A stretch of 64,000 bases of DNA from a phage (GCA_008273105.1 GCA_008273105.1_4080.1), one strand, 5' to 3'; positions 17,207-62,483 are shown, counted from the first letter of the stretch. Notes: generated from the letters alone by a model not told the origin. Program-made: numbers and translations.

Positions 17207-17207
17207 G

Positions 17208-20841: not shown

Positions 20842-20843
20842 TA

Positions 20844-39931: not shown

Positions 39932-40171
39932 TTACATTCCAACCATTGCAGCACGGATCGCCGTAGTGCTATACTTGAATCCGTCCGGTGTTGTAGTAGT
40001 ACCGTTGGCTTTTAATCTGCGGTACATACATTGGGCCGCAATATCTTTAGTTTTACATTGTGCGATGCAACTTTGAGCAAGCCGATATAATGACTCACCG
40101 TTATTAATCCACAATGAAACATTCCAATGAGTTTTGTTTTTGTGTCCGTTGTAAGTTTTAGTACTAGCCAT
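39932..40171 (-). CDS. hypothetical early protein (paralog of 41972..42211)
   Basis: Shares GHKNKTHWNVSLWINN.ESLYRLAQ and TPDGFKYSTTAIRAAMVGM. Confidence 0.55.
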   Translation of the reverse strand: MASTKTYNGHKNKTHWNVSLWINNGESLYRLAQSCIAQCKTKDIAAQCMYRRLKANGTTTTPDGFKYSTTAIRAAMVGM

Positions 40172-40261
40172 TTTTAAATCCTCGTTTGAGCGGGGAACCA
40201 TTCCCCGCCTCGATATAAAGTATTATACGCTTTTAAACTTAGTTTGCAAGTACTTTTTAAA

Positions 40262-41971: not shown

Positions 41972-42211
41972 TTACATTCCAACCATTGCCGCACGGATCG
42001 CAGTAGTGCTATATTTGAATCCGTCCGGTGTTTTATCTTGTCCAGTCTGTTCTAAAAATAACATCATATGACGGGCCGCATCATTGCGATTAGTGCTATC
42101 GTTAATAAAGTCCTGGGCCAACCGGTATAATGATTCATCGTTATTAATCCAAAGGCTTACATTCCAATGAGTTTTGTTTTTGTGACCTAAGAACATTTTT
42201 GATTTAGCCAT
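41972..42211 (-). CDS. hypothetical early protein (paralog of 39932..40171)
   Basis: ORF 79 aa; GAGGA SD. Confidence 0.55.
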   Translation of the reverse strand: MAKSKMFLGHKNKTHWNVSLWINNDESLYRLAQDFINDSTNRNDAARHMMLFLEQTGQDKTPDGFKYSTTAIRAAMVGM

Positions 42212-42784: not shown

Positions 42785-42876
42785 CTTTCTATATAGGAGT
42801 ACTATTATTCAGTACTGAATCAATCCAGGGGAACTATCTTTCTATATAGGAGTACTATTATTCAGTACTGAATCAA
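42785..42876. repeat. 39-bp direct repeat x2 (14-bp spacer)
   Basis: ctttctatataggagtactattattcagtactgaatcaa at 42785-42823 and 42838-42876; contains palindrome ttcagtactgaa. Confidence 0.8.
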
Positions 42877-43028
42877 CCAAATCACTACTACACCCCATAA
42901 AACGGCCTCAGACGCATTCTAACGCATTAATACACATAAGCTATACATTTGCACCATTCCAATCATTCCAGGGCTTTACAGGCCGTTTAAACGCGTTAAA
43001 TTATTTTCAATTATTTTGTTTTTAGGTA

Positions 43029-43600: not shown

Positions 43601-44657
43601 TGGAGGGCTAGACATATCTACGCCCAAAATCCATCCAGGGTAACTACACCCAAAATCCGTCAGTACTATACCATAGATCTATCTTTTGAAAGGGAGTATT
43701 CAGTACTGCCATCATAGCCCTCACTATGTTACCCTAGGAGGATGAAGACCATCATGTAGTACTGAATACTGTTAGAGGGAATCCACCAGCTTGTGCTGGT
43801 GGCATAATGCTTTAGATTAAAATCAGTACTAATACCATTCTGTTAATATCAGTACTGTTATTACGATTTTCATATGAGGTTCAAAAAGATGTACCACCAC
43901 AGGAGGAACTATCTTTTCTGTACTGTACTGTCTCACGACAGGAGGTAGAGTAAATGAATTGTTCGCAGCAACTCATCTCTCTATGTAGAACATTATACAG
44001 TACTGAATCATAATGTCAATAACTTTCTTTCATCTTTCAGTACTGATATTCTTGAGAACTACCCGACTACAATCATCATTATATCCCACAAATCATAAAC
44101 GTCCCAACGTAAATTTCAACTTTCGAAGATCCAACTTTTATTTCATAGGTACTCCAAAATTTTTAGGATCGAGATTTAGGATGGAGTACTAACCAACTTT
44201 TTGCTGGAGCCTCAAGGGGTAATTGAATTTTACCCCGAAGGGTAAAAGGGTAATTGTAATTAAGGTGAAAGTAATAATTCAGTACTAATCATTGCGTGAT
44301 TACTTTTGATTACATTTGATGTAATTTGCAAAATGGAAAAGGAGCTTGGAAACTAAAAAGTACGGCAGACTTCCTCTGCCTACTTAGTGGCATATCAGTA
44401 CTGAATCATTCACACACATTTCCGTGCATTCTTGAGCAATCTTGTCTATACTAATCAGTACTGAATCATATATAATCATTCTGTGATTCTACGGTGCTCA
44501 TATAAATGTTTATATATGATTACTTATGACTACCTATGATTACGGGGTTTAGCCTGGGGAGAATCCTAGTGATCGCATTTGTCCAGGCTGAATTTTAACA
44601 ATTCGCCTGTACATAAAGGTTGTTCACTAGGAGCTTCCCCTGTCTCTATGTGTTTAA

Positions 44658-44849
44658 TTACTTTCTATATATAAGCATTAAGATATAGTAGTACTGATTA
44701 TACTGTACATTCTCTTTAATATTATAAGGGTCTATAGCAATCTCGGTACATCTGTTAAATGCATATCTATTAAATGCCAGTGGAATTATAGATCTAATCC
44801 ATACTTGTTCATTTTCTTTTAGTTTACTTATATAGAAGTTTTTATACAT
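44658..44849 (-). CDS. family-C small protein
   Basis: ORF 63 aa; MYKNFYISKL ... YYILMLIYRK. Confidence 0.55.
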   Translation of the reverse strand: MYKNFYISKLKENEQVWIRSIIPLAFNRYAFNRCTEIAIDPYNIKENVQYNQYYYILMLIYRK

Positions 44850-44864
44850 AGTATTCTCTATTAA

Positions 44865-45047
44865 TTAATATGATAGTACTAGTGTTAGTACTGAGCACAA
44901 TTGTTCTTTATAGTTCTTATGGTATATAGAATCTTTTATGCACTCATTGAAGTGCCATAGGTATAATCTTGGGTCGCATTCTTTATATATTCTTACGGGG
45001 ACGAATGTTAGTTTTCGTATATAGAATTCTTTATGTTCTTTATTCAT
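44865..45047 (-). CDS. family-C small protein
   Basis: ORF 60 aa; MNKEHKEFYIRKL ... LTLVLSY. Confidence 0.55.
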   Translation of the reverse strand: MNKEHKEFYIRKLTFVPVRIYKECDPRLYLWHFNECIKDSIYHKNYKEQLCSVLTLVLSY

Positions 45048-45048
45048 A

Positions 45049-45237
45049 TTAGTACCTGAATATAAGTAGGATTATGTTATAGTACTGGTTAGTACTGCAA
45101 TGATTCTCTATACATCGATTAACAGTTATGGAATAGCTATATCTGGCGTAAGCATTATCCAGGGGGATTTTACATTGAGCACTTAGAGAAAGTACAGTAG
45201 GTAGTGTATTCAAATAGAAGTCTTTGTAATTATTCAT
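45049..45237 (-). CDS. family-C small protein
   Basis: ORF 62 aa; MNNYKDFYLNTL ... ILLIFRY; 1-nt gap to next gene. Confidence 0.55.
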   Translation of the reverse strand: MNNYKDFYLNTLPTVLSLSAQCKIPLDNAYARYSYSITVNRCIENHCSTNQYYNIILLIFRY

Positions 45238-45439
45238 ACAGGAATAGTATACCTATGATACCTGAGTACAGGTTAGTACTGTTACCATCTTCGTTTGCGT
45301 TTAAAGTCATTTGAATACAATTATTGTAGCATACTCTGCCGAAAAATGTATTAGTACTTAAAGGTGGAGTAGTCCTTAGAAACATTTGTTCTGAGGGGCT
45401 TATGTATTTGGAGTAGAATTCTTTATGTTCTTTATTCAT
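45230..45439 (-). CDS. family-C small protein
   Basis: ORF 69 aa; MNKEHKEFYSKY ... IGILFLYE. Confidence 0.55.
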   Translation of the reverse strand: MNKEHKEFYSKYISPSEQMFLRTTPPLSTNTFFGRVCYNNCIQMTLNANEDGNSTNLYSGIIGILFLYE

Positions 45440-45444
45440 ATTAG

Positions 45445-45630
45445 TTAGTGTCTGTATATAAGTAATAGTAAGAATACGTACTGCACATCTTCATCTTTAG
45501 TATTGAGTACTGTACGTATTGCGTCATTAAACAAGAATATAGTACTTGGGTCATGAGAATTTAAAGGGGTTCTGGGTACGGCACATTTGTAGTTCCCTTT
45601 AACAAATTGTGTGTAGTATTCTCTATGCAT
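45445..45630 (-). CDS. family-C small protein
   Basis: ORF 61 aa; MHREYYTQF ... LLLLIYRH. Confidence 0.55.
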   Translation of the reverse strand: MHREYYTQFVKGNYKCAVPRTPLNSHDPSTIFLFNDAIRTVLNTKDEDVQYVFLLLLIYRH

Positions 45631-45631
45631 A

Positions 45632-45817
45632 TTAGTACCTATATATTAGGGCGATAATGTAGTACAATTCATATGGAATGTAATTTGGGGTGATCGCACA
45701 CTGTGTATGGTAAATGAATTGTTCGGTATTTTTCTTATCCTTGATATCTATTGGGATTAGTGGTATAAGCATTTGGGAGTTTAGATCGAGATGGCTTAAG
45801 TAGAATTCTTTATGCAT
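45632..45817 (-). CDS. family-C small protein
   Basis: ORF 61 aa; MHKEFYLSHL ... IIALIYRY. Confidence 0.55.
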   Translation of the reverse strand: MHKEFYLSHLDLNSQMLIPLIPIDIKDKKNTEQFIYHTQCAITPNYIPYELYYIIALIYRY

Positions 45818-45826
45818 ATTGTTCTT

Positions 45827-46015
45827 TTAGAATACGAAAGCTAGGTACAGGGTATGATACAGTACTCGATGATAGCTGTCAAAATCTAGTATACATGCTT
45901 TAGTGCACATAGTAAAGTACACTTTATCGTTTTGTGCATTGATACCGCGAGGTTTATCTAATAGATTAGTACTGAGGTACATTGGGAAATATTTTGTGTA
46001 GTATTCTTTATGCAT
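45827..46015 (-). CDS. family-C small protein
   Basis: Start set at MHKEYYTKY (family N-terminus); ... HTLYLAFVF. Confidence 0.5.
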   Translation of the reverse strand: MHKEYYTKYFPMYLSTNLLDKPRGINAQNDKVYFTMCTKACILDFDSYHRVLYHTLYLAFVF

Positions 46016-46016
46016 A

Positions 46017-46199
46017 TTAGTACCTGAATATAAGTAGGATAGTGTTATATAGCTGGTCATAACTACTACTATTTTCTATACTTCGTTCTATGCAGTTATT
46101 GAATCCCAGTACTACCAAATCGTTATCCATAGGGACTTTGTATCTGGCGTAGTGTTCAAAAATGCTGGGGAGAAATTGTGTGTAGTATTCTTTGTGCAT
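46017..46199 (-). CDS. family-C small protein
   Basis: ORF 60 aa; MHKEYYTQF ... TILLIFRY. Confidence 0.55.
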   Translation of the reverse strand: MHKEYYTQFLPSIFEHYARYKVPMDNDLVVLGFNNCIERSIENSSSYDQLYNTILLIFRY

Positions 46200-46200
46200 A

Positions 46201-46392
46201 TTAGTACCTATATATTAGTAAAAGGATGTGATACAGTACTCGATTATAGTCTTCAATATATATCGAGGATTTAGTGCACTGAATGAAGTAGTCTTTTTCG
46301 TAGTTTTTTTCTATACCCAATGCAACGTTTGGTACAAGGTGTTGGAGATACATTGGGAGTTTCTCTATGTAGTATTCTTTGTGGTTATTCAT
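46201..46392 (-). CDS. family-C small protein
   Basis: ORF 63 aa; MNNHKEYYIEKL ... ILLLIYRY. Confidence 0.55.
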   Translation of the reverse strand: MNNHKEYYIEKLPMYLQHLVPNVALGIEKNYEKDYFIQCTKSSIYIEDYNRVLYHILLLIYRY

Positions 46393-46393
46393 A

Positions 46394-46576
46394 TTAGTAC
46401 CTGAATGTTAGCATTACTACGTAGTACAGCATATATGGATTATCATCGTATATGAGCGTGTACTTAGTACATTATTGGAACATTATCTTTGCGTGATCTT
46501 TTATGCCTATTGGTTCTGTTGGTATATGGTGCTGGAGATGCATAGGGATTTTATCCCTGTAGTATTCTTTGTGCAT
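46394..46576 (-). pseudogene. family-C member with in-frame TAA nonsense codon
   Basis: MHKEYYRDKIPMHLQHHIPTEPIGIKDHAKIMFQ-stop, same frame continues CTKYTLIYDDNPYMLYYVVMLTFRY-stop giving the family C-terminus. Confidence 0.5.
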
Positions 46577-46586
46577 GTTGTTCTCT

Positions 46587-46769
46587 TTAGTACTTATATA
46601 TTAGGAGTAAAATGTTATAGTACTGGTTCATTGTATCATCATTTTCTATAGCACGTTTTACGCTATTCATGTAGTTAGATCGAGCGGCACGAGTTATGAG
46701 AAGAACTTTGTATGCAGCAAAGTATTTTTGCTGCACGGGTAGTTTAGAGATATAGTATTCTTTATACAT
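46587..46769 (-). CDS. family-C small protein
   Basis: Start set at MYKEYYISKL; ... ILLLIYKY. Confidence 0.5.
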   Translation of the reverse strand: MYKEYYISKLPVQQKYFAAYKVLLITRAARSNYMNSVKRAIENDDTMNQYYNILLLIYKY

Positions 46770-47433
46770 AGTTTGTAATATACGTAATGAGGTGATGCAT
46801 TTTCTTATTAGTACTGATAATTTCCTGTACATGTTTTGTCAGATTGTACGCGTTTTTATAGAGTACTGGATTATCGATTACAGTACTGTACATGAATAGT
46901 TCTTCTTCCTGTAGTTCTTTGTGTTCTAGTTCTTTGAGGAATTGCAGTACTGTATCAGTTTCTTCTGTACGTTGTGCTTGCCAGAAGTGCATATTCTCGT
47001 GTACTTTTTCTGCATCAGTAGAGTATATGCCACCCATTTGGAATTGTGCTGTATTGACATCGTGGGAGGTGTTACAATTCCCGAAGAAGTATGTATTCCC
47101 GAAGTATAGCATTAAAGTGCACGGGGTATTATCCAACTGCATATTGATGATGAAGGATGCGTTCTTTAGTACCTTTGTGCTCGTATTAGTACTCAATACT
47201 TTTAAATCAGTATTATAGATATTCATATAATGAACAGCTATATTATTTTTCTTCATGTACAATTCAAGGTTCTTTGATACGTTAACTCCATTTGTACTGG
47301 ATTTTTCCTTTTTATTTCGTTTCTTTAGTACATTCGGGTGATACGTATATGCAGATGTAACTGATTCTGCCTGAATACTATTGAGGTACTTAAAGTGCTT
47401 AAGGTATTGTTTGCTGTGTGCATTAAGTTTCAT
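46762..47433 (-). CDS. hypothetical protein with family-A-like core, embedded in family-C array
   Basis: ORF 223 aa; contains QEEELFMYSTVIDN resembling the family-A F-Q core. Confidence 0.5.
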   Translation of the reverse strand: MKLNAHSKQYLKHFKYLNSIQAESVTSAYTYHPNVLKKRNKKEKSSTNGVNVSKNLELYMKKNNIAVHYMNIYNTDLKVLSTNTSTKVLKNASFIINMQLDNTPCTLMLYFGNTYFFGNCNTSHDVNTAQFQMGGIYSTDAEKVHENMHFWQAQRTEETDTVLQFLKELEHKELQEEELFMYSTVIDNPVLYKNAYNLTKHVQEIISTNKKMHHLITYITNYV

Positions 47434-47443
47434 TTGGTTTCCT

Positions 47444-47623
47444 TTATATAGATGCCAGGGCGAGGATTTCCCTGTAGGGATTATCTTGTGTTAGTACAGC
47501 ATAAATGCAGCTATTGAGATTAATATTTTTAGTACTTTTTGTTCCTAGTTTGTAGTAATCAACGAATGTGTCGTACATGAAACGGTCTTTAATGCTTATG
47601 TGTTCTCTATAGAATTGTTGCAT
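47444..47623 (-). CDS. family-C small protein (59 aa, below ORF-track cutoff)
   Basis: Manual translation MQQFYREHISIKDRFMYDTF ... YREILALASI. Confidence 0.45.
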   Translation of the reverse strand: MQQFYREHISIKDRFMYDTFVDYYKLGTKSTKNINLNSCIYAVLTQDNPYREILALASI

Positions 47624-47631
47624 AGTATTCC

Positions 47632-47820
47632 TTACATAGAGATGAGTTTCAGTACATCAATATACATATAACGTTCAGATGACTGTACACGGGTAGTGAT
47701 AATCTCAATCGATATGTTTTTAATTAGAGGTGAAGATGATTGATGGTTCTGAATAAATGTGTGGTGCATACTTTGTTCTATGTGGTTTAGTTTATTGAAG
47801 TAGTACTCAAAAGTGTTCAT
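47632..47820 (-). CDS. family-C small protein (subtype 2)
   Basis: ORF 62 aa; MNTFEYYFNKL ... YIDVLKLISM. Confidence 0.55.
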   Translation of the reverse strand: MNTFEYYFNKLNHIEQSMHHTFIQNHQSSSPLIKNISIEIITTRVQSSERYMYIDVLKLISM

Positions 47821-47827
47821 GTCTACC

Positions 47828-48007
47828 TTAGATTGAGATTAGTTTAAGTACTTCTCTGTACGTGTACTTTTCGTTTTGTGCTTCTACTGTACACGAGAGT
47901 AGATAACGTTTTTTATCTCTTTTGTTCCCGACTGTGTAGTACCTTTGGAATTTATTATAGTTGTATCTATCTTTGTGCTGGAGGTTATAGATATAGAATT
48001 CTTGCAT
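47828..48007 (-). CDS. family-C small protein (59 aa, below ORF-track cutoff)
   Basis: Manual translation MQEFYIYNLQHKDRYNYNKFQRYY ... YREVLKLISI. Confidence 0.5.
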   Translation of the reverse strand: MQEFYIYNLQHKDRYNYNKFQRYYTVGNKRDKKRYLLSCTVEAQNEKYTYREVLKLISI

Positions 48008-48015
48008 AGAGTACC

Positions 48016-48201
48016 TTATATTGCTATCAGTTTGAGTACTTCAATATATGTGCGGTACTCTGCTTTAATTAAATTTGTACACACTGTAAGGGAATTTCTT
48101 TGTATAAGTTTATTGCCGCTTTTATACGCATTTCTCCACACATAGAGATGAGATCTTTCAGGCATAGATAGTTTATTGGTATAGTACTCAAATGTATTCA
48201 T
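48016..48201 (-). CDS. family-C small protein (subtype 2)
   Basis: ORF 61 aa; MNTFEYYTNKL ... YIEVLKLIAI. Confidence 0.55.
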   Translation of the reverse strand: MNTFEYYTNKLSMPERSHLYVWRNAYKSGNKLIQRNSLTVCTNLIKAEYRTYIEVLKLIAI

Positions 48202-48209
48202 ATATTACC

Positions 48210-48392
48210 TCAAATAGAGATTAGTTTAAGTACTTCTCTGTATGTGTACTTTTCGTTTTGTGCATCTCTTGTGCTTGTATATAGGTATCCTCGACGATAT
48301 TTGTTGCTCCCGTTCTTGTAGTGGAATTCGAACTTATTGTAGATGAATCTATCGCCAGGCTGTAATTTACTTAAGTACAATTCAATGCTCAT
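48210..48392 (-). CDS. family-C small protein (subtype 2)
   Basis: Start set at MSIELYLSKL; ... YREVLKLISI. Confidence 0.5.
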   Translation of the reverse strand: MSIELYLSKLQPGDRFIYNKFEFHYKNGSNKYRRGYLYTSTRDAQNEKYTYREVLKLISI

Positions 48393-48402
48393 AGTATTCT
48401 CT

Positions 48403-48588
48403 TTACATATCAATAAGTTTCAGTACTGCTCGGTACGTGTACTTAGTTGTCAGTGCTTCTTTAATAGAAATACAGAAGTAATGTTGTTTGTCTCTTATAC
48501 TGCCGCGTTTGTAGTACCACACATGGGAGTTGTGACTGTACTTGTCTCTGTCGGATAGTTGTTGGTAGTAGTAGCTTATATGATTCAT
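48403..48588 (-). CDS. family-C small protein (subtype 2)
   Basis: ORF 61 aa; MNHISYYYQQL ... YRAVLKLIDM. Confidence 0.55.
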   Translation of the reverse strand: MNHISYYYQQLSDRDKYSHNSHVWYYKRGSIRDKQHYFCISIKEALTTKYTYRAVLKLIDM

Positions 48589-48640
48589 TATAATGTAATT
48601 AGCCTTACTATATTAAAGTACTCGGTCCCTGGTGTACCTT

Positions 48641-48835
48641 TTAGAACTTAAAGATGAGGTTCAGGATAGAGCGGTACTTAGTTTCAGGGAACTGATGTTC
48701 TATTGCATAACGTGTCACCATCCTGAAATCGTAATTATAATACAGATTATCCTTTCTCATAGGTGGTGCTAAAGAGAATGATAGCTGTTCTTGTTTGGGT
48801 AGTTTACTACAATAGAAATCTTTATGATTATTCAT
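48641..48835 (-). CDS. family-C small protein
   Basis: ORF 64 aa; MNNHKDFYCSKL ... ILNLIFKF. Confidence 0.55.
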   Translation of the reverse strand: MNNHKDFYCSKLPKQEQLSFSLAPPMRKDNLYYNYDFRMVTRYAIEHQFPETKYRSILNLIFKF

Positions 48836-49037
48836 AGAAATATATTAGTCCTATTAAACCTGAGTACATAATATTTTTGTTATTGCATTCGATTGCTTCT
48901 AGAGTACTACGTATACAATTATTAAAGCAATCTCTACCGAATTGAGTATTGGTACTTACAGGTGATACACTCCTTAGAAACAATTGTTCTTCGTTGCTAA
49001 GGTATTTGGTGTAGAATTCTTTATGTTCAGTATTCAT
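48828..49037 (-). CDS. family-C small protein
   Basis: ORF 69 aa; MNTEHKEFYTKYL ... IGLIYFYE; near-duplicate architecture of 45230..45439. Confidence 0.55.
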   Translation of the reverse strand: MNTEHKEFYTKYLSNEEQLFLRSVSPVSTNTQFGRDCFNNCIRSTLEAIECNNKNIMYSGLIGLIYFYE

Positions 49038-49038
49038 A

Positions 49039-49242
49039 TTAGTACTCGATTAATAGGGTAAGGATGTAATAGTATTGCATACATTCTACCCCTTGTAAAG
49101 CATTTCTTATGTTATTATTCCTGTACGAGTTCAGGAGTTTAGGGCTACGTTTGAGGTGTTTGAAATTAGTTTGTGTATGCAGTAGGCTTTCACGTAGACC
49201 TTTTGTTGGTAGTGCATCGATGTAGTACTGTTCGATATTCAT
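49039..49242 (-). CDS. family-C small protein
   Basis: ORF 67 aa; MNIEQYYIDAL ... ILTLLIEY. Confidence 0.55.
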   Translation of the reverse strand: MNIEQYYIDALPTKGLRESLLHTQTNFKHLKRSPKLLNSYRNNNIRNALQGVECMQYYYILTLLIEY

Positions 49243-49466
49243 ATAGATAGCAGTACTAAGATTTTTGATAATTGTTTATTGCTATCCCCGCAGATGTTGC
49301 TGTGTAAAATACTCACAATGAGGGTATCAATTGCATTGTTCATCATAAGGGTGCATCCTGGACTATTATAATTTTTTAGCTCAATTAGCCACGAACTATC
49401 CGCGAGAAATTCCCCGTACTCTAGTTCATTTAGAGTATTGAGGTAGTACTTAAGAGTATTTGTCAT
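49239..49466 (-). CDS. family-C small protein (first gene of operon)
   Basis: ORF 75 aa; MTNTLKYYLNTL; AAGGAGA SD and sigma70-type promoter upstream. Confidence 0.55.
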   Translation of the reverse strand: MTNTLKYYLNTLNELEYGEFLADSSWLIELKNYNSPGCTLMMNNAIDTLIVSILHSNICGDSNKQLSKILVLLSI

Positions 49467-49491
49467 GTGTAGTTCTCCTTATATTCCTTCT

Positions 49492-49520
49492 ATAGTACAC
49501 CAGTACTGAAAGGATGTCAA
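49492..49520 (-). promoter_or_regulatory. sigma70-type promoter for family-C operon (TTGACA-N17-TACTAT)
   Basis: Minus strand TTGACA tcctttcagtactggtg TACTAT, then AAGGAGA SD and ATG at 49466. Confidence 0.55.
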
Positions 49521-49539
49521 GGGTTTTCTTTATGGGGTA

Positions 49540-49568
49540 AATATGATATAATGAATAAGGAGGGATTT
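49540..49568 (+). promoter_or_regulatory. promoter -10 (TATAAT) and SD of first leader-tagged cassette
   Basis: aaatatgatataatgaataaggaggg then ATG at 49569; no good -35. Confidence 0.5.
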
Positions 49569-50678
49569 ATGTTACCTTTTGGAAGAATGTTAAAGTATGG
49601 GAATGTAGCACCTGTACCCAAAAAAATAAAGAAAGTTATTGCAGGATATGATAATTTATATGTACTATATGGTGATGGATCGCTATATGGTTGTGGAATC
49701 AATAACTATCAACAGTTAAATATTACTGGAACTACTACACAAAATAAATGGGTACTGATTACAAATGGCGTTAATAATGCATGGGCTGGTGGATATAATA
49801 TTTTATATTTTAAAGAAGATAAATTTATAATGCACGGAACTAATGTCTCATTAGGTTTAGGAAATAATACAATTCCACTAGGTGGAGTAGATGTAACTTC
49901 TTCATTTCCAGATATATCTGATATTAAAATGATATCCATTGGTTTTGATTCAATGCACTATGTTAGTGCTGATGGTAAAATTGTATATGGAAGAGGTATG
50001 AACACAAATGGTTCTGTTGGTTCAGGTAGTACTTACTCACAGAGTACTTTTACTTCAGTACTGAATAATGGCACTAATCAGGTTATTGATATATTTGGTA
50101 ACGTTAATAATACAGTGCTTCTAACGTCAAATGGCGAGCTTCGTGCGTGTGGTACAAGTGCTTATGGTTCCATAGGAAATGAAACTGGTAAGTGGACATC
50201 GTTTGGTTTAAAATTATCTGGCACTAAAATAATGGGTGGTAATGCGTATAGTACGCTTGCATATACAAATGCGGGAATGTACCACACAGGGTGGCAGTTA
50301 AATGGGGAACTGGGAAATGGTTTAGATACTAACGTACAGGTATATCCATTTCAATTTAACTCTAAAACAATAGATAGCAAGATAGATAAAATTGCTAAAT
50401 CATCATCTGGGTCATATGTTAATATGTACTCAACAACAGAAGGAAAGATATATACTACAGGTGCATATGGTAAAAACGGCTCAACTACTGCATTGAATTT
50501 GTTCACCAATACACTAACACTTGAAAATTACAATCCAGATGCCGCAGCGTTGTATACGTGCACAAACTTCAGTGTTGTATATGATGGTAATGAAACTATT
50601 GCTGTAAGTGGTAGTCCTACATATGTACCAGGTGACGTTGCCGCAAATAGATGGACCACAATTCCATTACCCAAGTAA
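49569..50678 (+). CDS. MLPF-leader RCC1-like beta-propeller repeat protein 1
   Basis: Start MLPFGRMLKYGN after AAGGAGG; body has repeated G-x-L/V-Y-G-C/R-G-x-N-x-x-G-x-L/V/I-G-x-G units (YGCGINNYQQL, YGRGMNTNGSVGSG, ACGTSAYGSIGN). Confidence 0.75.
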   Translation: MLPFGRMLKYGNVAPVPKKIKKVIAGYDNLYVLYGDGSLYGCGINNYQQLNITGTTTQNKWVLITNGVNNAWAGGYNILYFKEDKFIMHGTNVSLGLGNNTIPLGGVDVTSSFPDISDIKMISIGFDSMHYVSADGKIVYGRGMNTNGSVGSGSTYSQSTFTSVLNNGTNQVIDIFGNVNNTVLLTSNGELRACGTSAYGSIGNETGKWTSFGLKLSGTKIMGGNAYSTLAYTNAGMYHTGWQLNGELGNGLDTNVQVYPFQFNSKTIDSKIDKIAKSSSGSYVNMYSTTEGKIYTTGAYGKNGSTTALNLFTNTLTLENYNPDAAALYTCTNFSVVYDGNETIAVSGSPTYVPGDVAANRWTTIPLPK

Positions 50679-50684
50679 TACGAT

Positions 50685-50714
50685 GCCAGTACTTGATACT
50701 GGCTTTCTTATTTG
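50685..50714 (+). terminator. intrinsic terminator (cassette boundary)
   Basis: gccagta cttga tactggc hairpin + tttcttatttg T-run. Confidence 0.65.
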
Positions 50715-50747
50715 TATTAAATATAGTATAATGATAAAGGAGGAACT
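50715..50747 (+). promoter_or_regulatory. cassette promoter -10 (TATAAT) and SD
   Basis: gtattaaatatagTATAATgataAAGGAGG; weak or absent -35. Confidence 0.5.
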
Positions 50748-51926
50748 ATGTTACCTTTTGGAAGAATGTTGAATTATGGAAATGAAGCACCGGGCGTACC
50801 AACACCAAAAGATTTCTTTTTGGATGTATCATCCGGCAAACCTACTATGTTGATGCTTTTGGATAACGGCGAAGTATGGGGTTGTAGTAATGATGGACAA
50901 CTATTAGGTTTAAACACTACCGCGTCAGCATACGGTAAGCCATACTTTGTTATGGAAAATGTTAAGTTAATGTTCGCGTCAGTGTGGGGGACATTACTTA
51001 TCACTAACGATAATAAAGTGAAGTACACTGGTAGACAAACCATGTTTAATGGTTCATCTAATTATTGGAGTACTTTTCAAGATTTTACAACGAAGTACAC
51101 GACTGTTGGTATTGACATAAGTACTATAGAAAAAGTTGGATTCAATACTGGTACATTATTCCTACGCACAACTAATGGTGATTTATGGGGTCATGGAAAT
51201 AACGCTAATGGTTATTTCGGAAAAGGAAATACCGTGGCGAATTACACACCAACCAAGATCAAGACTAATACATTAGATTTTTGGTTAACTAATGGGAATG
51301 CAATTGTACAAACTGGCCCTAAAGAATTCTATGCTACTGGTGATAATTATTATTATCAAATGGGTGTTACGACTACTGGTAATATAACAACATGGACACA
51401 GATTTTTAAGGACGCTACTGATGATCCTGAGTTTGAATATAATGCAATGCGAACAAGTCAAGCAACATTAATACTTTACGGTAAAGGAACTACATTCTAC
51501 GCAAGTGGGAGAAACTATATGAGTTCATGGGGTGTATCTGGAGCACCAGTGGATGTTAATACTACACTATATAAAGGTACGTTACCATTTGTACCCGGGG
51601 ATTTAACATATTTTTATGCTGGTCGAGAACAAGCATATTGGACTAACTTAATCATTGATACTAATGGAGTTCTGTACATATCTGGAACAAAAGATGGGGG
51701 TGGTGGTTCAAATGCACCTATATTTGAAGTATTACCAACCCCAAGTAGTGCAGTTGGATTCAAATGTGGTACAGCAACACGTTCTTATGCTATAATGGAT
51801 TGTACTGGCAATCAATTTATGTACGCACGTGGTACAGCTTTGTCAGACCCTGCTGGCTTTACACCAATGAGTACACCATTAAATCATACATGGACACACA
51901 TAACAGATTTTAAATTTAACCGATAA
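50748..51926 (+). CDS. MLPF-leader RCC1-like beta-propeller repeat protein 2
   Basis: MLPFGRMLNYGN leader; repeats of WGCSNDGQLLG / WGHGNNANGYFGKG type. Confidence 0.75.
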   Translation: MLPFGRMLNYGNEAPGVPTPKDFFLDVSSGKPTMLMLLDNGEVWGCSNDGQLLGLNTTASAYGKPYFVMENVKLMFASVWGTLLITNDNKVKYTGRQTMFNGSSNYWSTFQDFTTKYTTVGIDISTIEKVGFNTGTLFLRTTNGDLWGHGNNANGYFGKGNTVANYTPTKIKTNTLDFWLTNGNAIVQTGPKEFYATGDNYYYQMGVTTTGNITTWTQIFKDATDDPEFEYNAMRTSQATLILYGKGTTFYASGRNYMSSWGVSGAPVDVNTTLYKGTLPFVPGDLTYFYAGREQAYWTNLIIDTNGVLYISGTKDGGGGSNAPIFEVLPTPSSAVGFKCGTATRSYAIMDCTGNQFMYARGTALSDPAGFTPMSTPLNHTWTHITDFKFNR

Positions 51927-51932
51927 TATTAT

Positions 51933-51966
51933 GCCAGTACTTGATACTGGCATTTCTTTTTGTATT
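51933..51966 (+). terminator. intrinsic terminator (cassette boundary)
   Basis: gccagtacttgatactggc + atttctttttgtatt. Confidence 0.65.
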
Positions 51967-51997
51967 AAATATAATATAATGAATAAAGGAGGGAAAT
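51967..51997 (+). promoter_or_regulatory. cassette promoter -10 and SD
   Basis: aaatataatataatgaataAAGGAGGG. Confidence 0.5.
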
Positions 51998-53191
51998 ATG
52001 TTACCTTTTGCAAGAATGGTTAAATACGGGAATAAACAGCCTATTCCTGAACCAGTTGAGTTCACTGATGTTTTACAGCAACATTATACTAATGCTATGT
52101 ATCTACATAAGCCCACGAATACACTATACGGTTATGGTGGTAATAACTTGAGCCAATTAGGTCTAGGGAATCAATCGACAGTTTCTACTTTTACAGTACT
52201 GGCAACGCACTGTGCAGCCTTTTGGTTAGGCGTTCATGGATCATTGATGATTGACTTGGATAATAGAATATATTTCACAGGGAATACAGTAGCATTCCCC
52301 GATTATGGAGATGCAACTCCAGTTAATGGTTATTTTAGAACATGGACTGATGTTACTGCCGCATTTAACAAAATAAATATACACGCTAATTTAATCAAGA
52401 GTGTACATATAGGTGAAAGTACTAGAATATTACTACACGATGGAAGAGTCGTTGTTTGTGGTAAAAATGCAAATGCCGAATGTGGAACAGGTAACCAAAA
52501 TCCCATTCCAGTACTAACAGTTGTTACTGGTATGGGTGAAGTTTCTCAATTGGCGTGTTCATTACAGGGTACGCACTATCTCAAAACAAATAAAGAAGCA
52601 TGGTTTTGTGGTAAGGATAACTTTGGTGAAAGTGGTGGTGGGACTAGCTCATACGTTTTTACTAATAAATTAATACGAACCAACGTCGATTATATAAGTG
52701 CTACTTATGATGTTACCTGGTGGTTCACTGCCGGTAGGGTGTACTGGAGTGGTAGAAACAATTCTGGACAAGCTGGGAATGGTACTACTTCAACTACAAA
52801 CCAATTAACTACAGTTCAGAATTCACAGGTTATAGTGAATATTAGTGATGGTTTCCTGTGTCCTAGTAATATGGGTAACTCAACAATTGGTGCACCTATG
52901 GCTCAATACCCATCATATGTCAGGAGTGCAGGCATCAATACATATGGTCAAGAAGGGACGGGAAATACAACAGTAATTACTTCGTGGGGGGCGTTTTCTT
53001 TAAGTGCGATACAGGGTGGATATGACAATGTTCTTATGGCATCCAAAGACTGGTCCAGAACAATAATTATAACTAAAGATTATAAATTATATGCATGTGG
53101 GGGCTTTAACGGTTCAGGTGGTAACTTACCGGATGGTACTTCCTTAATTAAAACATTAACATTAATGCCAACGCAGTTATGGCAACAATAG
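51998..53191 (+). CDS. MLPF-leader RCC1-like beta-propeller repeat protein 3
   Basis: MLPFARMVKYGN leader; repeats YGYGGNNLSQLGLG, VCGKNANAECGTG, WSGRNNSGQAGNG. Confidence 0.75.
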   Translation: MLPFARMVKYGNKQPIPEPVEFTDVLQQHYTNAMYLHKPTNTLYGYGGNNLSQLGLGNQSTVSTFTVLATHCAAFWLGVHGSLMIDLDNRIYFTGNTVAFPDYGDATPVNGYFRTWTDVTAAFNKINIHANLIKSVHIGESTRILLHDGRVVVCGKNANAECGTGNQNPIPVLTVVTGMGEVSQLACSLQGTHYLKTNKEAWFCGKDNFGESGGGTSSYVFTNKLIRTNVDYISATYDVTWWFTAGRVYWSGRNNSGQAGNGTTSTTNQLTTVQNSQVIVNISDGFLCPSNMGNSTIGAPMAQYPSYVRSAGINTYGQEGTGNTTVITSWGAFSLSAIQGGYDNVLMASKDWSRTIIITKDYKLYACGGFNGSGGNLPDGTSLIKTLTLMPTQLWQQ

Positions 53192-53199
53192 GAGGGAAT

Positions 53200-54309
53200 A
53201 TGTTACCTTTTGGAAGAATGATTAGGTATGGAAATATTGTCCCTGGTCCTAAAAAAATAATTAAAGTTGGTGCTTCTACCCAAGGCCAATTCTTATTGAC
53301 TGATTCACATGATTTATATTACATAGGTAGAAATCAAGGTGGTGAATCTGGAAATGGTAATACCAACACGGTATCTTCATGGATATTAGTAAGTGCAGAT
53401 GTTTCTAATTTTTTCGTGGGTGATCGTACACTTGTTATTATTAAAAATGATAATACTATATGGACATCAGGTCAAACGTACTGGTTCTCATCTTCTACAA
53501 CTACTTCTTACAGTACTGTATTAGTTGAAAGGACTAGTTGGTTTACCAATGCTATACCAGTCAGTGAAATTGCTAATATTGTATGCACAAATGGTTTAAT
53601 ATTTGTACTTAGCACTAATTCAGTACTCTATGGTGCAGGAGATAATGGATATCGTGGTTCTTTGGGTATTGGTTCCTCATCAATTTACACATTAACTCAA
53701 TGTGCTACGAACGTTCGTAAAGTAATGACCAATGCGAATGATAGTATATATCTTACATTAGATAATAAGCTATATAGTTCTGGATGGAATAGTAGTGGGC
53801 AGCATGGTACGGGGAACCAAACACAAATTAACACTTGGGGATTGCGTAGTTCTGGTGTAATCGATGCAGCCATTGGTGGTAATGCATTAAATTACTATAA
53901 TGGTACATCATATTTCGTATGTGGTCAAACTCCAAACTTTCTTAGTTCAGGTACGACTACATTCCGTGCAGTTCCTTTAAGTACTTTGCCTAATAGTTCT
54001 CCGTTGTTTATGACGAATTCACCTGCCTTAAATACTGCTACACAAATGGTAATTACTAGTACATATCAGAAGGGTGTTGGGGCGAACCGTGGTTTGGGAT
54101 TAAACAATTCTCAAACTGGTGCTATATATAGTGCTACCAATTTACAATTACCCGTTGAAGTTAGTGAGATTAGGGATGTTCTTTTTAGTGATGGTTTGAC
54201 ATCGATATTAACCAAAAATGGAGATGTGTATAGTACTGGATCGTATTACGCCATTCCAGGTGCAATCGAGGATGTTGCAGTCTTTACTAAAATTGATTTA
54301 CCAAAATAA
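53200..54309 (+). CDS. MLPF-leader RCC1-like beta-propeller repeat protein 4
   Basis: Start MLPFGRMIRYGN 8 nt after stop of gene 3 (TAG overlaps AGGAGGG SD); no terminator/promoter cassette, so likely co-transcribed. Confidence 0.75.
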   Translation: MLPFGRMIRYGNIVPGPKKIIKVGASTQGQFLLTDSHDLYYIGRNQGGESGNGNTNTVSSWILVSADVSNFFVGDRTLVIIKNDNTIWTSGQTYWFSSSTTTSYSTVLVERTSWFTNAIPVSEIANIVCTNGLIFVLSTNSVLYGAGDNGYRGSLGIGSSSIYTLTQCATNVRKVMTNANDSIYLTLDNKLYSSGWNSSGQHGTGNQTQINTWGLRSSGVIDAAIGGNALNYYNGTSYFVCGQTPNFLSSGTTTFRAVPLSTLPNSSPLFMTNSPALNTATQMVITSTYQKGVGANRGLGLNNSQTGAIYSATNLQLPVEVSEIRDVLFSDGLTSILTKNGDVYSTGSYYAIPGAIEDVAVFTKIDLPK

Positions 54310-54315
54310 CATAAT

Positions 54316-54346
54316 GCCAGTACACTGTACTGGCTTTCTTATTTGT
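54316..54346 (+). terminator. intrinsic terminator (cassette boundary)
   Basis: gccagtac act gtactggc + tttcttatttg; loop differs from other copies, stem conserved. Confidence 0.65.
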
Positions 54347-54379
54347 ATTAAATATAGTATAACAAATAAAGGAGGGAAT
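54347..54379 (+). promoter_or_regulatory. cassette promoter -10 (TATAAC variant) and SD
   Basis: gtattaaatatagTATAACaaataAAGGAGGG. Confidence 0.45.
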
Positions 54380-55519
54380 ATGTTACCTTTTGCAAGAATG
54401 GTTAAGTACGGGAATATCGCACCTGAACTGATTCTACCTAAAAACAGGTTACAATGTTCTGCTGATGCCAAATTTTATTTACACACAAATGGCAATCTAT
54501 ATTGGTTTGGTTCTTCAGCATATGGACAAAGTGGTAATAGTTCATTGGACTCTTCAACTGAATGGACTCTTGTCAACTCAAATGTTACACGATATTGGGG
54601 TGGGGTACAAGGAACAATTGCTATAAAGAAAGATGGTACTATTTGGTACACTGGTAGACGTACTGTTATTCCAATACTATCTTCAAACACTAACGGCGTT
54701 TGGGTTGATATAACACAGAACTTTACTGATTTCGGTGTCAGTGCAGATGATATTGATAGTGTTGTGATATCTTCGTGTATGCGTGTATTTTTAAAAAATG
54801 GAAAGTGGTTCTACTGTGGTGCTGGTACTGGTGGTGTTTTTGGGAATGGATCAACTTCAAGCGTTTCACGATTCACCTATAGTACAATAGAAAATGTTAT
54901 CAGTGCTGGTTGTGCAATATATAGTACTGGATTAGTACTAAATGATGGTTCATATTGGTATGCAGGTAGAACGTTTGTATCAGGAACGACGACACAAAAC
55001 TTGCTCACATTTACACAAGATACTTCGATTAGTAATGCAATTAAAGCAGTCAATACAAATGAAACTTCTTATATATTTCTTAATGATGGTAATGTTAAAG
55101 TTGCATCTATTAACGACTATGGACAAGCAGGTACAGGAAATAGGTCAGTAGCCCCAATGAGTACATTAATTCCAAATTTATCATTCCAAGGAGAAGTGGA
55201 GTTGGTGGGTGAGCTTGGGACAAACCTTACCGGACCATCCTGTATAATTAATAATAATAATAAGTTATTTTCATGTGGCCTTAATTCAAATGGTCAATGT
55301 GGTATTGGTACAACTGATATGTATATAACATCATTCGCTGAAATGGATCTTACTGCATTAGAAGGTAGTAATCTTAGTAGTTTTTGTAAGAGCTATTCTT
55401 ATACGATGTTAGTTGACGAATATAATAATTTATACACATGTGGTGTACCCAATCTTACTGGAATGTCTTCAACTACTGTACCAACAAGGGTTCCTGATTC
55501 ACTTCTACCGTGGAAATAA
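54380..55519 (+). CDS. MLPF-leader RCC1-like beta-propeller repeat protein 5
   Basis: MLPFARMVKYGN leader; repeats WFGSSAYGQSGN, YCGAGTGGVFGNG, SCGLNSNGQCGIG. Confidence 0.75.
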   Translation: MLPFARMVKYGNIAPELILPKNRLQCSADAKFYLHTNGNLYWFGSSAYGQSGNSSLDSSTEWTLVNSNVTRYWGGVQGTIAIKKDGTIWYTGRRTVIPILSSNTNGVWVDITQNFTDFGVSADDIDSVVISSCMRVFLKNGKWFYCGAGTGGVFGNGSTSSVSRFTYSTIENVISAGCAIYSTGLVLNDGSYWYAGRTFVSGTTTQNLLTFTQDTSISNAIKAVNTNETSYIFLNDGNVKVASINDYGQAGTGNRSVAPMSTLIPNLSFQGEVELVGELGTNLTGPSCIINNNNKLFSCGLNSNGQCGIGTTDMYITSFAEMDLTALEGSNLSSFCKSYSYTMLVDEYNNLYTCGVPNLTGMSSTTVPTRVPDSLLPWK

Positions 55520-55525
55520 TATAAT

Positions 55526-55556
55526 GCCAGTACACTGTACTGGCTTTCTTATTTGT
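55526..55556 (+). terminator. intrinsic terminator (cassette boundary)
   Basis: gccagtacactgtactggc + T-run. Confidence 0.65.
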
Positions 55557-55590
55557 ATTAAATATAGTATAATGAATAAAGGAGGGAAAT
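55557..55590 (+). promoter_or_regulatory. cassette promoter -10 and SD
   Basis: attaaatatagTATAATgaataAAGGAGGG. Confidence 0.5.
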
Positions 55591-56739
55591 ATGTTACCTT
55601 TTGTAAGAATGATGAATTATGGGAATATTGCCCCTGGTAAGGATAGGCGTTTTAAAATATATTCAAGTGATTCTATGTATCTTCATGATACTTATACTAA
55701 TAAGTTGTATGCATCTTCTGCGACGAATTGGGGTACTGGAACAGGTGTAGCATCGAGTAAATTTATTCTTTGTGCAGAGAATGTTAAACGAGTTCTATTG
55801 GAAGATAACAGTAGTAGTTGTCAATTGTATGAAGAGAAAGGTACTGGAAAAGTTTTTATCACTGGTAACACGAAGGCATTCACTGGTGTAACTGATACAA
55901 AAACTTTGTGGACGGACTGTACTACGTGGATAACATCAGGTGGTATTAATGTTTCTGATATAAAATACATGAGTAGTTTTAATGATATGAAGGTGAATTT
56001 GATAACAAACGATGGTACGTTGTATTGTTGTGGAGTTAACAATAACTCGAACCTATCATCATTTGGTGATGGTACAAACATTAATTCTTTTAACACATTC
56101 AAAAGGGTAGATACTATAACTTCGGTTAAAAAGGCAGTTGGTAACATATACCTAAAAGAAGATAATACTTTATGGGGTTGTGGTTTTAACTATTACTATC
56201 AGTTAGGTACAGGTAATCAAACTTCTATTACTGGGGTGACGATGATTTCTTCGGATGTTATAGATTTTGATGTAAGTTATCAGAGTACATTTTTTATTAA
56301 ATCGGATAATAATTTGTACGCTTGTGGTAAACAGTTCGGTGCACAATACGGGAACGAATTTGGCACAGGTGGTACTTCTTCATCTACCGATATACAATAC
56401 AAAACTCCGACATTATTGAGTTCGGGAGTTTATACTCTATATACGTGTGTTAGTAACATGGCATCACATATAGCTAAAGGTGATGAAGTTCTATACGCAT
56501 CTGGGTCGAATGGATTTGGTCAATTAGGTGTTGGTAATAATATTAATCAGTACTCATATACTCCTTCGTATACTTCGTTTAATAGTTCGTGTAATTTGGT
56601 ACGCACTCCATCTGGTTCACTTATACTTACGGACACTGAGCAATTATATTATTGTGGGTATGCTATGGTAGTAATGGGGGGAATTGCTGGACAAAACATT
56701 CTTAGTTATACAGAAGTTGATATGTCATTTATACAATGA
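55591..56739 (+). CDS. MLPF-leader RCC1-like beta-propeller repeat protein 6
   Basis: MLPFVRMMNYGN leader; repeats YCCGVNNNSNLSSFGDG, WGCGFNYYYQLGTG, YASGSNGFGQLGVG. Confidence 0.75.
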   Translation: MLPFVRMMNYGNIAPGKDRRFKIYSSDSMYLHDTYTNKLYASSATNWGTGTGVASSKFILCAENVKRVLLEDNSSSCQLYEEKGTGKVFITGNTKAFTGVTDTKTLWTDCTTWITSGGINVSDIKYMSSFNDMKVNLITNDGTLYCCGVNNNSNLSSFGDGTNINSFNTFKRVDTITSVKKAVGNIYLKEDNTLWGCGFNYYYQLGTGNQTSITGVTMISSDVIDFDVSYQSTFFIKSDNNLYACGKQFGAQYGNEFGTGGTSSSTDIQYKTPTLLSSGVYTLYTCVSNMASHIAKGDEVLYASGSNGFGQLGVGNNINQYSYTPSYTSFNSSCNLVRTPSGSLILTDTEQLYYCGYAMVVMGGIAGQNILSYTEVDMSFIQ

Positions 56740-56745
56740 TTTAAT

Positions 56746-56776
56746 GCCAGTACAGAGTACTGGCTTTCTTATTTGT
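56746..56776 (+). terminator. intrinsic terminator (cassette boundary)
   Basis: gccagtac aga gtactggc + T-run. Confidence 0.65.
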
Positions 56777-56810
56777 ATTAAATATAGTATAATGAATAAA
56801 GGAGGAATTT
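56777..56810 (+). promoter_or_regulatory. cassette promoter -10 and SD
   Basis: attaaatatagTATAATgaataAAGGAGG. Confidence 0.5.
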
Positions 56811-58001: not shown

Positions 58002-58008
58002 TAATTTA

Positions 58009-58039
58009 GCCAGTACAAAGTACTGGCTTTCTTATTTGT
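58009..58039 (+). terminator. intrinsic terminator (cassette boundary)
   Basis: gccagtac aaa gtactggc + tttcttatttg. Confidence 0.65.
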
Positions 58040-58072
58040 ATTAAATATAGTATAATGAATAAAGGAGGAAGT
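58040..58072 (+). promoter_or_regulatory. cassette promoter -10 and SD
   Basis: attaaatatagTATAATgaataAAGGAGG. Confidence 0.5.
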
Positions 58073-59206: not shown

Positions 59207-59212
59207 TACAAT

Positions 59213-59243
59213 GCCAGTACTTGATACTGGCTTTTCTTTTTGG
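59213..59243 (+). terminator. intrinsic terminator (cassette boundary)
   Basis: gccagtacttgatactggc + ttttctttttg. Confidence 0.65.
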
Positions 59244-59276
59244 TTAAATATAGTATAATGAATAAAGGAGGGAATT
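59244..59276 (+). promoter_or_regulatory. cassette promoter -10 and SD
   Basis: gttaaatatagTATAATgaataAAGGAGGG. Confidence 0.5.
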
Positions 59277-60014: not shown

Positions 60015-60021
60015 AATATAG

Positions 60022-60052
60022 GCCAGTACTTGATACTGGCTTTCTTATTTGT
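60022..60052 (+). terminator. intrinsic terminator (cassette boundary)
   Basis: gccagtacttgatactggc + tttcttatttg. Confidence 0.65.
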
Positions 60053-60085
60053 ATTAAATATAGTATAATGAATAAGGAGGGAATT
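60053..60085 (+). promoter_or_regulatory. cassette promoter -10 and SD
   Basis: attaaatatagTATAATgaatAAGGAGGG. Confidence 0.5.
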
Positions 60086-61228: not shown

Positions 61229-61234
61229 AATAAT

Positions 61235-61268
61235 GCCAGTACTCAAGTACTGGCATTTCTTTTTGATT
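61235..61268 (+). terminator. intrinsic terminator (cassette boundary)
   Basis: gccagtac tcaa gtactggc + atttctttttg. Confidence 0.65.
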
Positions 61269-62475: not shown

Positions 62476-62483
62476 GAGTGAAT

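Follow-up and report, generated by a model that had tools for sequence, protein, structure and literature searches.

A 64,000-nucleotide (nt) stretch of phage DNA (GCA_008273105.1 GCA_008273105.1_4080.1), referred to below as the window, carries on its minus strand at 44658-49466 an array of 21 small open reading frames (ORFs) of 59-75 amino acids (aa), 20 of which appear from their sequences to form one family, named Family C, with two subtypes. Tandem gene expansion is an already-known phenomenon in jumbo phages, and the array represents an uncharacterised family within it. The ORFs are real coding genes under moderate purifying selection, lying in one co-directional unit behind a conserved sigma-70-type promoter. 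Their number varies between related phages, apparently through insertion and deletion of whole cassettes at conserved junctions, and their products are best interpreted as early, non-enzymatic binders of host or defence proteins, a statement that, taken as a whole, is about evenly balanced between right and wrong. The count of about 21 tandem minus-strand genes made in a preliminary description of this DNA was confirmed by an ORF list and a junction table.

Family membership was assessed with hhalign, using profiles built from the window genes and their orthologs. Subtype 1 and subtype 2 aligned over 54 columns (probability 91%, E 9.6e-7), and gene B aligned with subtype 1 over its full length (probability 52%, E 1.4e-4). 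Sequences linking the groups were also found in the phage JNE01, where one paralog bridges the two subtypes (subtype-1 hidden Markov model (HMM) 1e-14, subtype-2 HMM 5e-6) and another, J_1020_1223, matches both the gene B HMM (1e-10) and the subtype-1 HMM (1e-5). The idea of a single Family C was therefore upheld for subtypes 1 and 2 (E 1e-6 in round figures) together with gene B as a probable member, making 20 ORFs, but not for gene A (probability 0.6% against subtype 1). Kinship of this acidic leader gene, the only one with a canonical Shine-Dalgarno (SD) sequence, TAAGGAG, is not demonstrable from the profiles. The array is also less homogeneous than had been described, as it contains a nonsense-mutated copy and an unrelated 223-aa gene, gene X (hhalign probability 0.08% against the family), which the preliminary description did not mention. 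Two ways in which gene X might still be related, as a member interrupted by an extra domain or as a protein ending in a family domain, were considered and rejected (0.08-3% probability). The subtype motifs reported earlier at both ends are present in the sequences, namely (H/N)KE(Y/F)Y..L at the N-terminus and ..IL.LI(Y/F)R(Y/H) or ..EVLKLISI at the C-terminus. The paralogs are old, with median identities of 31% among subtype-1 members, 37% among subtype-2 members and 25% across the two subtypes.

Evolutionary constraint on the ORFs was examined over 40 ortholog pairs, which share window genes and are thus not independent; this inflates the p-value but leaves the direction of the effect clear. 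Read in the called frame, the ORFs gave a ratio of nonsynonymous to synonymous substitution rates (dN/dS) of 0.36. The two remaining sense frames gave 0.98 and 1.37, and the antisense frames gave 1.63, 0.63 (the codon-complement frame) and 1.44. Substitutions at codon positions 1, 2 and 3 numbered 117, 89 and 164, respectively. When pooled against each of six relatives, dN/dS was 0.30-0.42 in five cases; the sixth, slurp01, is a very close relative with small counts and gave 0.79. Across seven phages, the genes keep their lengths and reading frames. Because purifying selection is frame-specific and the reading frames are kept in all seven phages, the ORFs are taken as real genes. One copy carries a nonsense codon at 46472-46474 (CAA for Gln to TAA); an intact 62-aa relative, P0071, has CAA at this site, the copy is intact in 121Q (gene 258, 98.5% DNA identity), and truncated copies are also carried by TH47.

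A megablast search of region 44000-50700 against a phage collection matched 37 Escherichia/Salmonella jumbo phages of 310-386 kb, with vB_EcoM_E9.1 as the closest match (97.7% identity). The classified matches, 121Q included, belong to the genus Asteriusvirus, so that the source phage is, judging by these matches, an Asteriusvirus jumbo coliphage of the 121Q/PBECO4 group. The genes are arranged in the order A, B, two of subtype 1, six of subtype 2, X and eleven of subtype 1, consistent with the earlier observation that the subtypes lie in blocks. The same layout was found in six relatives and in the far more distant Asteriusvirus JNE01, whose genome announcement reports 80% nucleotide identity to PBECO4 at a query coverage of 59%. 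Neighbouring genes are separated by -8 nt at three junctions, -4 nt at one, +1 nt at five and 5-15 nt at most others. The tight packing noted before thus holds for most junctions (-8 to 15 nt), but there is a 52-nt gap at 48589-48640; an apparent gap of 79 nt is the tail of the family member cut by TAA. In all relatives examined, JNE01 included, gene X interrupts the array at the same place. It has no Pfam match, its PHROG (phrog_29152) is annotated as unknown function, and its AlphaFold2 model was unusable (predicted local distance difference test (pLDDT) score 46). In the relatives' records, the array region is annotated solely as rows of "hypothetical protein", and a series of RCC1-like "chromosome condensation" genes runs divergently from it.

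The best-conserved DNA of the array is a 66-nt junction (C-terminal codons, stop, start and N-terminal codons), which occurs in eight copies with 61-77% identity. A two-gene block (69 aa plus 62-64 aa, with an 8-nt overlap) is present twice, at 48641-49037 and 45049-45439, with 75% DNA identity; this duplication was also detected as a 246-nt direct repeat (75% identity), and the products of 48828-49037 and 45230-45439 share 59% aa identity. Judged by length and N-terminal sequence, subtype 2 can be read as a two-gene unit in three copies. Compared with the window, 121Q lacks 45054-45413 (the two-gene block) and 47656-48198 (three subtype-2 cassettes). The alignments flanking these segments overlap by 32 and 35 nt, which places the breakpoints within homologous junction sequence, and in the window the two copies of the 32-nt sequence are identical. 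By inspection, the metagenomic protein P0009 can be read as the N-terminal part of the 46201-46392 product and the C-terminal end of the 45827-46015 product, joined at the RVLYH stretch that both share, and such a chimera would be the expected product of unequal crossing-over. The number of small genes ranges from 16 to 21 among the relatives. In the proposed mechanism, the stop/start overlaps at the junctions would couple translation along the array, and the same conserved junctions would double as recombination substrates through which relatives gain and lose whole cassettes. Such turnover would provide a concrete mechanism for change in the accessory repertoires of jumbo phages.

The TTGACA-N17-TACTAT promoter placed near 49.5 kb in the preliminary description was recovered at 49520-49492 and is kept in six relatives (E9.1, 121Q, WPEC5, slurp01, Turkey3 and JNE01), with TACAAT as the -10 element in JNE01. 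The same architecture, TTGACA-N8-CAGTACTG-TATAAT, in which near-consensus sigma-70 hexamers enclose a spacer filled by the palindrome CAGTACTG, is found ahead of at least seven further small-gene units of the window. The array therefore uses the phage's standard near-consensus host-type promoter, and promoters of this class may be those of its early genes and contain an operator of their own. Minus-strand sites of the class have their first CAGTACTG base at 49508, 44005, 41254, 39098, 35098, 32745, 27364 and 25687 (plus-strand coordinates), and sites of the class are often followed by "..acat..aggggagaa" and ATG. The promoter of the next unit is a perfect 12/12 match (44019-43992). Because an 11/12 promoter-like site lies within the array itself (45882-45854), the promoter described earlier as single may not be the only one. 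A promoter-like site at 48616-48587, in the 52-nt gap, was rejected as the promoter of the gene that follows since its -10 element overlaps the start codon. The T4-type late motif TATAAATA was not found in the 64-kb window (0 copies versus 15.6 expected, standard deviation 3.6), and a distant 50-kb part of 121Q likewise has few copies of it (3, counting both strands, versus about 16 expected). In the related phage CBB, RpoD-like promoters cluster in a short-gene region taken as early host-takeover (PMC5259590).

With regard to translation, an SD-like match (at least 4 nt, between -20 and -4) was detected at 15 of the 22 starts against a background of 18% (p = 4e-7), 11 of them well spaced. In subtype 1 this is typically AGGT 7 nt upstream, located within the final codons of the preceding gene (AGG-TAC-TAA), and subtype-2 starts have TAAGG or GAGGT within a spacer of 7-10 nt. 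Starts that have no such match overlap or abut the preceding stop, which is the classic arrangement for translational coupling. The earlier statement that the genes have no individual SD sequence was therefore incorrect, the signal often being hidden in the last codons of the upstream gene.

Table 1. Genes and candidate expression signals of the array, in window coordinates (pI, isoelectric point).
Feature	Position	Strand	Description
Array promoter, sigma-70-type	49492-49520	-	TTGACA, 17 nt with CAGTACTG, TACTAT
Gene A	49239-49466	-	75 aa; acidic, pI 4.7; SD TAAGGAG; first gene in all relatives examined
Gene B	49039-49242	-	67 aa; probable distant family member; 4-nt overlap with gene A
Subtype 1	48828-49037	-	69 aa; phrog_11711 E 1.7e-12; starts two-gene block duplicated at 45049-45439
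Subtype 1	48641-48835	-	64 aa; 8-nt overlap with upstream gene
Subtype 2	48403-48588	-	61 aa; basic, pI 9.4
Subtype 2	48210-48392	-	60 aa; ATG start at 48392
Subtype 2	48016-48201	-	61 aa; SD GAGGT at -6
Subtype 2	47828-48007	-	59 aa
Subtype 2	47632-47820	-	62 aa
Subtype 2	47444-47623	-	59 aa
Gene X	46762-47433	-	223 aa; sequence unrelated to family; phrog_29152
Subtype 1	46587-46769	-	60 aa; internal ATG of 81-aa ORF; 8-nt overlap with gene X
Subtype 1, nonsense-mutated	46394-46576	-	in-frame TAA at 46472-46474; product limited to 34 aa
Subtype 1	46201-46392	-	63 aa; phrog_11711 E 2.7e-25; AlphaFold2-modelled protein
Subtype 1	46017-46199	-	60 aa; phrog_11711 E 1.1e-23
Subtype 1	45827-46015	-	62 aa; internal ATG of 77-aa ORF; houses promoter-like site; repeat family D11
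Internal promoter-like site, 11/12	45854-45882	-	TTGACA-17-TATCAT; GAGTACTG in spacer; inside gene 45827-46015
Subtype 1	45632-45817	-	61 aa
Subtype 1	45445-45630	-	61 aa
Subtype 1	45230-45439	-	69 aa; first of duplicated two-gene block; no counterpart in 121Q
Subtype 1	45049-45237	-	62 aa; second of duplicated two-gene block; no counterpart in 121Q
Subtype 1	44865-45047	-	60 aa
Subtype 1	44658-44849	-	63 aa; last gene of array
Candidate terminator	44364-44380	-	hairpin GGCAGAGGAAGTCTGCC then T-rich tail; consensus match only; candidate operon 3' end

An AlphaFold2 model of the 46201-46392 product, based on a 51-sequence alignment, reached a pLDDT of 90.9 (89-91 over five models) and places helices at residues 3-9, 14-17, 30-45 and 49-62, so that a four-helix fold is predicted with confidence for this subtype-1 member. 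Foldseek returned nothing at E < 8 against the PDB and only the family's own members against BFVD. The profile and structure comparisons proposed at the outset have thus yielded homology between the subtypes and a confident helical model that has no specific structural relative. No membrane-spanning segment was predicted in any member (maximum 19-residue Kyte-Doolittle mean at most 1.18). Members range from pI 4.7 to 9.6, and tyrosine makes up 11% of family residues. In the alignment, Tyr8 alone is invariant and Leu59 nearly so, and conservation at both ends contrasts with a hypervariable middle; none of the conserved residues is polar or catalytic. Replacements among orthologs are most frequent in the middle (5.6%), less so at the N end (3.5%) and least at the C end (2.4%). 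The conserved aromatic and hydrophobic positions at both ends probably form the core.

The family has a narrow distribution. All three subtype-1 proteins tested (48828-49037, 46201-46392 and 46017-46199) gave full-length matches to PHROG 11711 (1.7e-12, 2.7e-25 and 1.1e-23, respectively), while two subtype-2 proteins, gene A and gene B matched neither this nor any other PHROG. PHROG 11711 is thus a catalogue entry of the same family as subtype 1, listed with no function or description, and the tie to subtype 2 was made here by profile comparison. A known family does exist in this sense, but its entry gives the family a name and does not explain it. A word-seeded search of 5.8 billion proteins returned 51 matches and an exhaustive HMM search of 1.84 billion cluster representatives returned only 35 clusters, all of 59-75 aa. 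Every match is a single-domain protein, with lengths of 49-98 aa overall; those with a named source came from Escherichia/Salmonella jumbo phages or from E. coli assemblies in which such a phage is present. Similarly, tblastn against the phage collection hit 36 records, all Escherichia/Salmonella jumbo phages. On these searches the family appears confined to Asteriusvirus and close unclassified relatives. Pfam gave nothing at E <= 1 for eight proteins, PADLOC gave nothing consistent for 20 members (a lone weak match of one member to PDC-M37A, E 0.0024), the best PDB sequence-profile match was a designed repeat protein (E 0.16), and no RNA family was detected by Rfam over the array region. No paper describing the family turned up in the Asteriusvirus and jumbo-phage literature, and no description was found of the family itself, the subtype link, the fold or the junction architecture. 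Separately, an intact 60-aa family member (MHNDFYIQKL...ILILALRY) is unannotated in JNE01 (OR670491.1) at 3088-3270 on the plus strand, where it sits in a 186-nt "gap" of the GenBank annotation.

A DNA-level feature bears on how the conserved protein motifs should be read. AGTACT, the core of CAGTACTG, occurs 259 times in the window, about 12-fold over mononucleotide expectation; the window's three most enriched hexamers are all parts of CAGTACTG, and TCAGTACTG is present 51 times versus 0.43 expected. The enrichment extends to JNE01 (121 copies in 20 kb versus 7.3 expected) and to a distant part of 121Q (200000-249999; 133 copies in 50 kb versus 17 expected). Within the array AGTACT occurs in all three reading frames and at the highest density (6.9 per kb). 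Two 4-kb bins of the window, 12001-16000 and 20001-24000, contain none. No paper on enrichment of the AGTACT palindrome turned up in a literature search. Tyrosine codons are 86 TAC and 54 TAT in Family C versus 52 TAC and 135 TAT in the neighbouring RCC1-like genes (49551-62475), and the TAC preference of Family C may be linked to GTAC/AGTACT enrichment or to expression level.

The interpretation as binders of host or defence proteins is ranked first because the host-type promoter, the soluble scaffold with a variable surface, the lack of catalytic residues, the restriction to one genus, the cassette turnover and the occasional pseudogenes together resemble known takeover and anti-defence sets; most of the doubt attaches to the functional part of the statement. 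On this interpretation, the operon would be transcribed early by host RNA polymerase, each paralog would use its own surface to bind host factors or proteins of host defence, and the array would constitute a host-takeover or counter-defence arsenal whose individual members are dispensable. Several points weigh against this interpretation. The early timing is argued from promoter type and from analogy. Selection is only moderate, one copy is a fresh pseudogene, and many copies may contribute little. Selection on the DNA may be part of what keeps certain conserved residues (QYY, xVL, ST and the final Tyr) in place, as AGTACT-containing codons are enriched genome-wide and SD-like sequence lies within the last codons; this tempers the functional weight of the motifs, although the frame-specific selection and the fold prediction stand. 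Finally, the very hydrophobic last helix of subtype 1 could mean oligomerisation or peripheral membrane association. If the proteins are indeed host or defence binders, they would form a naturally diversified set of small E. coli protein inhibitors on one scaffold.

A more specific and distinctly more tentative proposal, which we would not expect to hold in full, is that the array is a library of effectors in which one four-helix scaffold displays about twenty surfaces, each neutralising a different host defence or factor, with junctions that both couple translation and allow shuffling, deletion and chimeras. Its bolder version has family members reading or protecting the AGTACT/CAGTACTG motif. 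If true, phages would possess an equivalent of the variable effector arrays known from eukaryotic pathogens.

It is unlikely, to a somewhat greater degree, that the array is evolutionary filler, i.e., tandem duplicates accumulated through a capsid-size "ratchet", each contributing little or nothing by itself and drifting because constraint is relaxed. Tandem duplication was put forward by Hua et al. as one way in which jumbo genomes grow, with a 121Q array of >30 similar genes cited (PMC5646251), and the 16-21 copies among close relatives, the nonsense codon in one copy here, the truncated copies in TH47 and a dN/dS that is not low (0.36 overall, 0.79 against slurp01) all agree with such drift. 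However, the paralogs are old (31% identity within subtype 1, 25% between subtypes) and yet keep their frames, lengths and fold-defining residues, JNE01 retains both the array and its order, the purifying selection is frame-specific, and the confidence of the AlphaFold2 model implies a coherent, co-varying family. Should the genes prove dispensable, this would support the "ratchet" view of jumbo-genome growth through tandem duplication.

The proteins might instead be small DNA binders, either transcription regulators or nucleoid/structural proteins, like the zinc-ribbon expansion of phage G, which Iyer et al. read as transcription factors or structural DNA binders (PMC7824862). The fold is helical, basic proteins (pI 9.2-9.6) make up subtype 2 and occur several times in subtype 1, and a palindrome (AGTACT/CAGTACTG) that saturates the genome needs a reader; but a pI of 4.7-6.9 makes many other members acidic or neutral, the hydrophobic last helix is unlike a polar recognition helix, and no helix-turn-helix (HTH), zinc-ribbon or other DNA-binding signature was found in Pfam (E <= 1), nor anything by Foldseek in the PDB at E < 8. 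There is at most one conserved Cys, and therefore no metal site. This role is accordingly regarded as quite improbable.

Still less probable is a role as virion-internal or injected proteins similar to the internal proteins of T4, in which the N-terminus would serve capsid targeting and the variable remainder would counter host defences as the phage enters the cell. The conserved N-terminus on otherwise divergent paralogs would suit this role, and phAPEC6 possesses an inner body and a T4-type prohead protease (PMC7247149). The virion proteome of phAPEC6, a close relative and not the source phage, comprises 62 proteins by mass spectrometry, among them several RCC1-like "DNA condensation proteins", but no family member of about 7-8 kDa, even though a 4.7-kDa protein was detected (PMC7247149). 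The (L/I)xE motif occurs in the first 25 residues of only 4 of 20 members, at varying positions. Because of this absence from the phAPEC6 virion and the scarcity of the motif, a T4 internal-protein-like role is unlikely; moreover, the N-terminal helix is integral to the predicted fold and confidently placed in it, and the promoter is of sigma-70 type with TATAAATA absent from the window, an absence of limited weight given that the motif is rare genome-wide. Finally, the idea that the ORFs are not genes but arise merely from a DNA element present in repeated copies (the 66-nt junction), which would make the "family" an artefact, is hardly credible and already contradicted, since, although that repeat is indeed the most conserved DNA segment (eight copies, 61-77% identity), selection is frame-specific, reading frames are intact in seven phages, the AlphaFold2 fold is confident, and profile homology is full-length and reaches beyond the junctions.

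Comparison with known systems places the binder interpretation in context. Host-takeover modules such as gp37-60 of the Bacillus phage SPO1 and the early small ORFs of T4 contain many small genes behind strong host-type promoters, which are individually largely dispensable and encode non-enzymatic inhibitors of host machinery. The array resembles them as a cluster of small genes behind a host-type promoter, whereas these modules consist mostly of unrelated genes and the array is built from a single set of paralogs; no resemblance in sequence or structure was seen. The T4 internal proteins IPI, IPII and IPIII are a variable tandem set with a conserved N-terminal stretch, and at least one member counters a host defence. 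In contrast to them, the array proteins are conserved at the C-terminus as well, are served by a sigma-70-type promoter and have no consistent protease motif. Anti-CRISPR loci combine unrelated families of small, fast-evolving, non-enzymatic proteins in one operon beside an HTH regulator. The array is similar in holding small, fast-evolving and presumably non-enzymatic proteins in one operon whose content varies between close relatives, but it multiplies one family and has no recognisable HTH gene, gene X having no Pfam match.

Tandem expansions in jumbo phages are already in print, including the approximately 35 zinc-ribbon genes of phage G (PMC7824862) and, mentioned in passing, those of the 121Q type (PMC5646251, PMC7247149). 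The present array is like these in comprising many diverged tandem copies of small genes, attributed to tandem duplication; it differs from the phage G expansion in fold and sequence and has no zinc ribbon, and, relative to the known expansions, the SD signals in last codons and the junction-indel architecture are documented here. What had been called a remarkable third expansion in the window is therefore new in so far as the family itself was not found described, but not as a phenomenon (PMC5646251, PMC7247149). Another tandem array with the motif "LGTNYQE" lies at about 16157-24298 on the minus strand, with about 22-30 genes of roughly 70-90 aa. Kinship between it and Family C was considered and rejected (hhalign probability <1%), and because of this result the two expansions appear independent, as the preliminary description had held. 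The "LGTNYQ" array may be the ">30 very similar genes" of 121Q reported by Hua et al. in 2017; the papers on the 121Q array give no gene coordinates (PMC5646251, PMC7247149). More than 80% of the genes in these 350-kb coliphages are of unknown function, and several such phages have been proposed for therapy. The present array is a compact, clearly bounded and experimentally tractable block of about 5 kb that covers about twenty such genes.

Some additional features were observed around the array. Twelve RCC1-like beta-propeller paralogs (245-433 aa) stand in tandem on the plus strand at 49551-63626, divergent from the array. In the noncoding stretch downstream of the array (44390-44470), direct repeats with "TGATTCAGTACTGA" lie 60 nt apart, and near-identical repeats of about 50 nt, "gattgattCAGTACTGaataatagtactcctatatagaaaga", occur at 42817 and 42870 (42800-42880); both sets could be clustered operator-like sites. 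A pair of minus-strand paralogs at 39932-40201 (89 aa) and 41972-42211 (79 aa) share the pattern "...GHKNKTHWNVSLWINN.ESLYRLAQ...TPDGFKYSTTAIRAAMVGM" and match, by position and length, JNE01 genes with the Pfam domain DUF7249.

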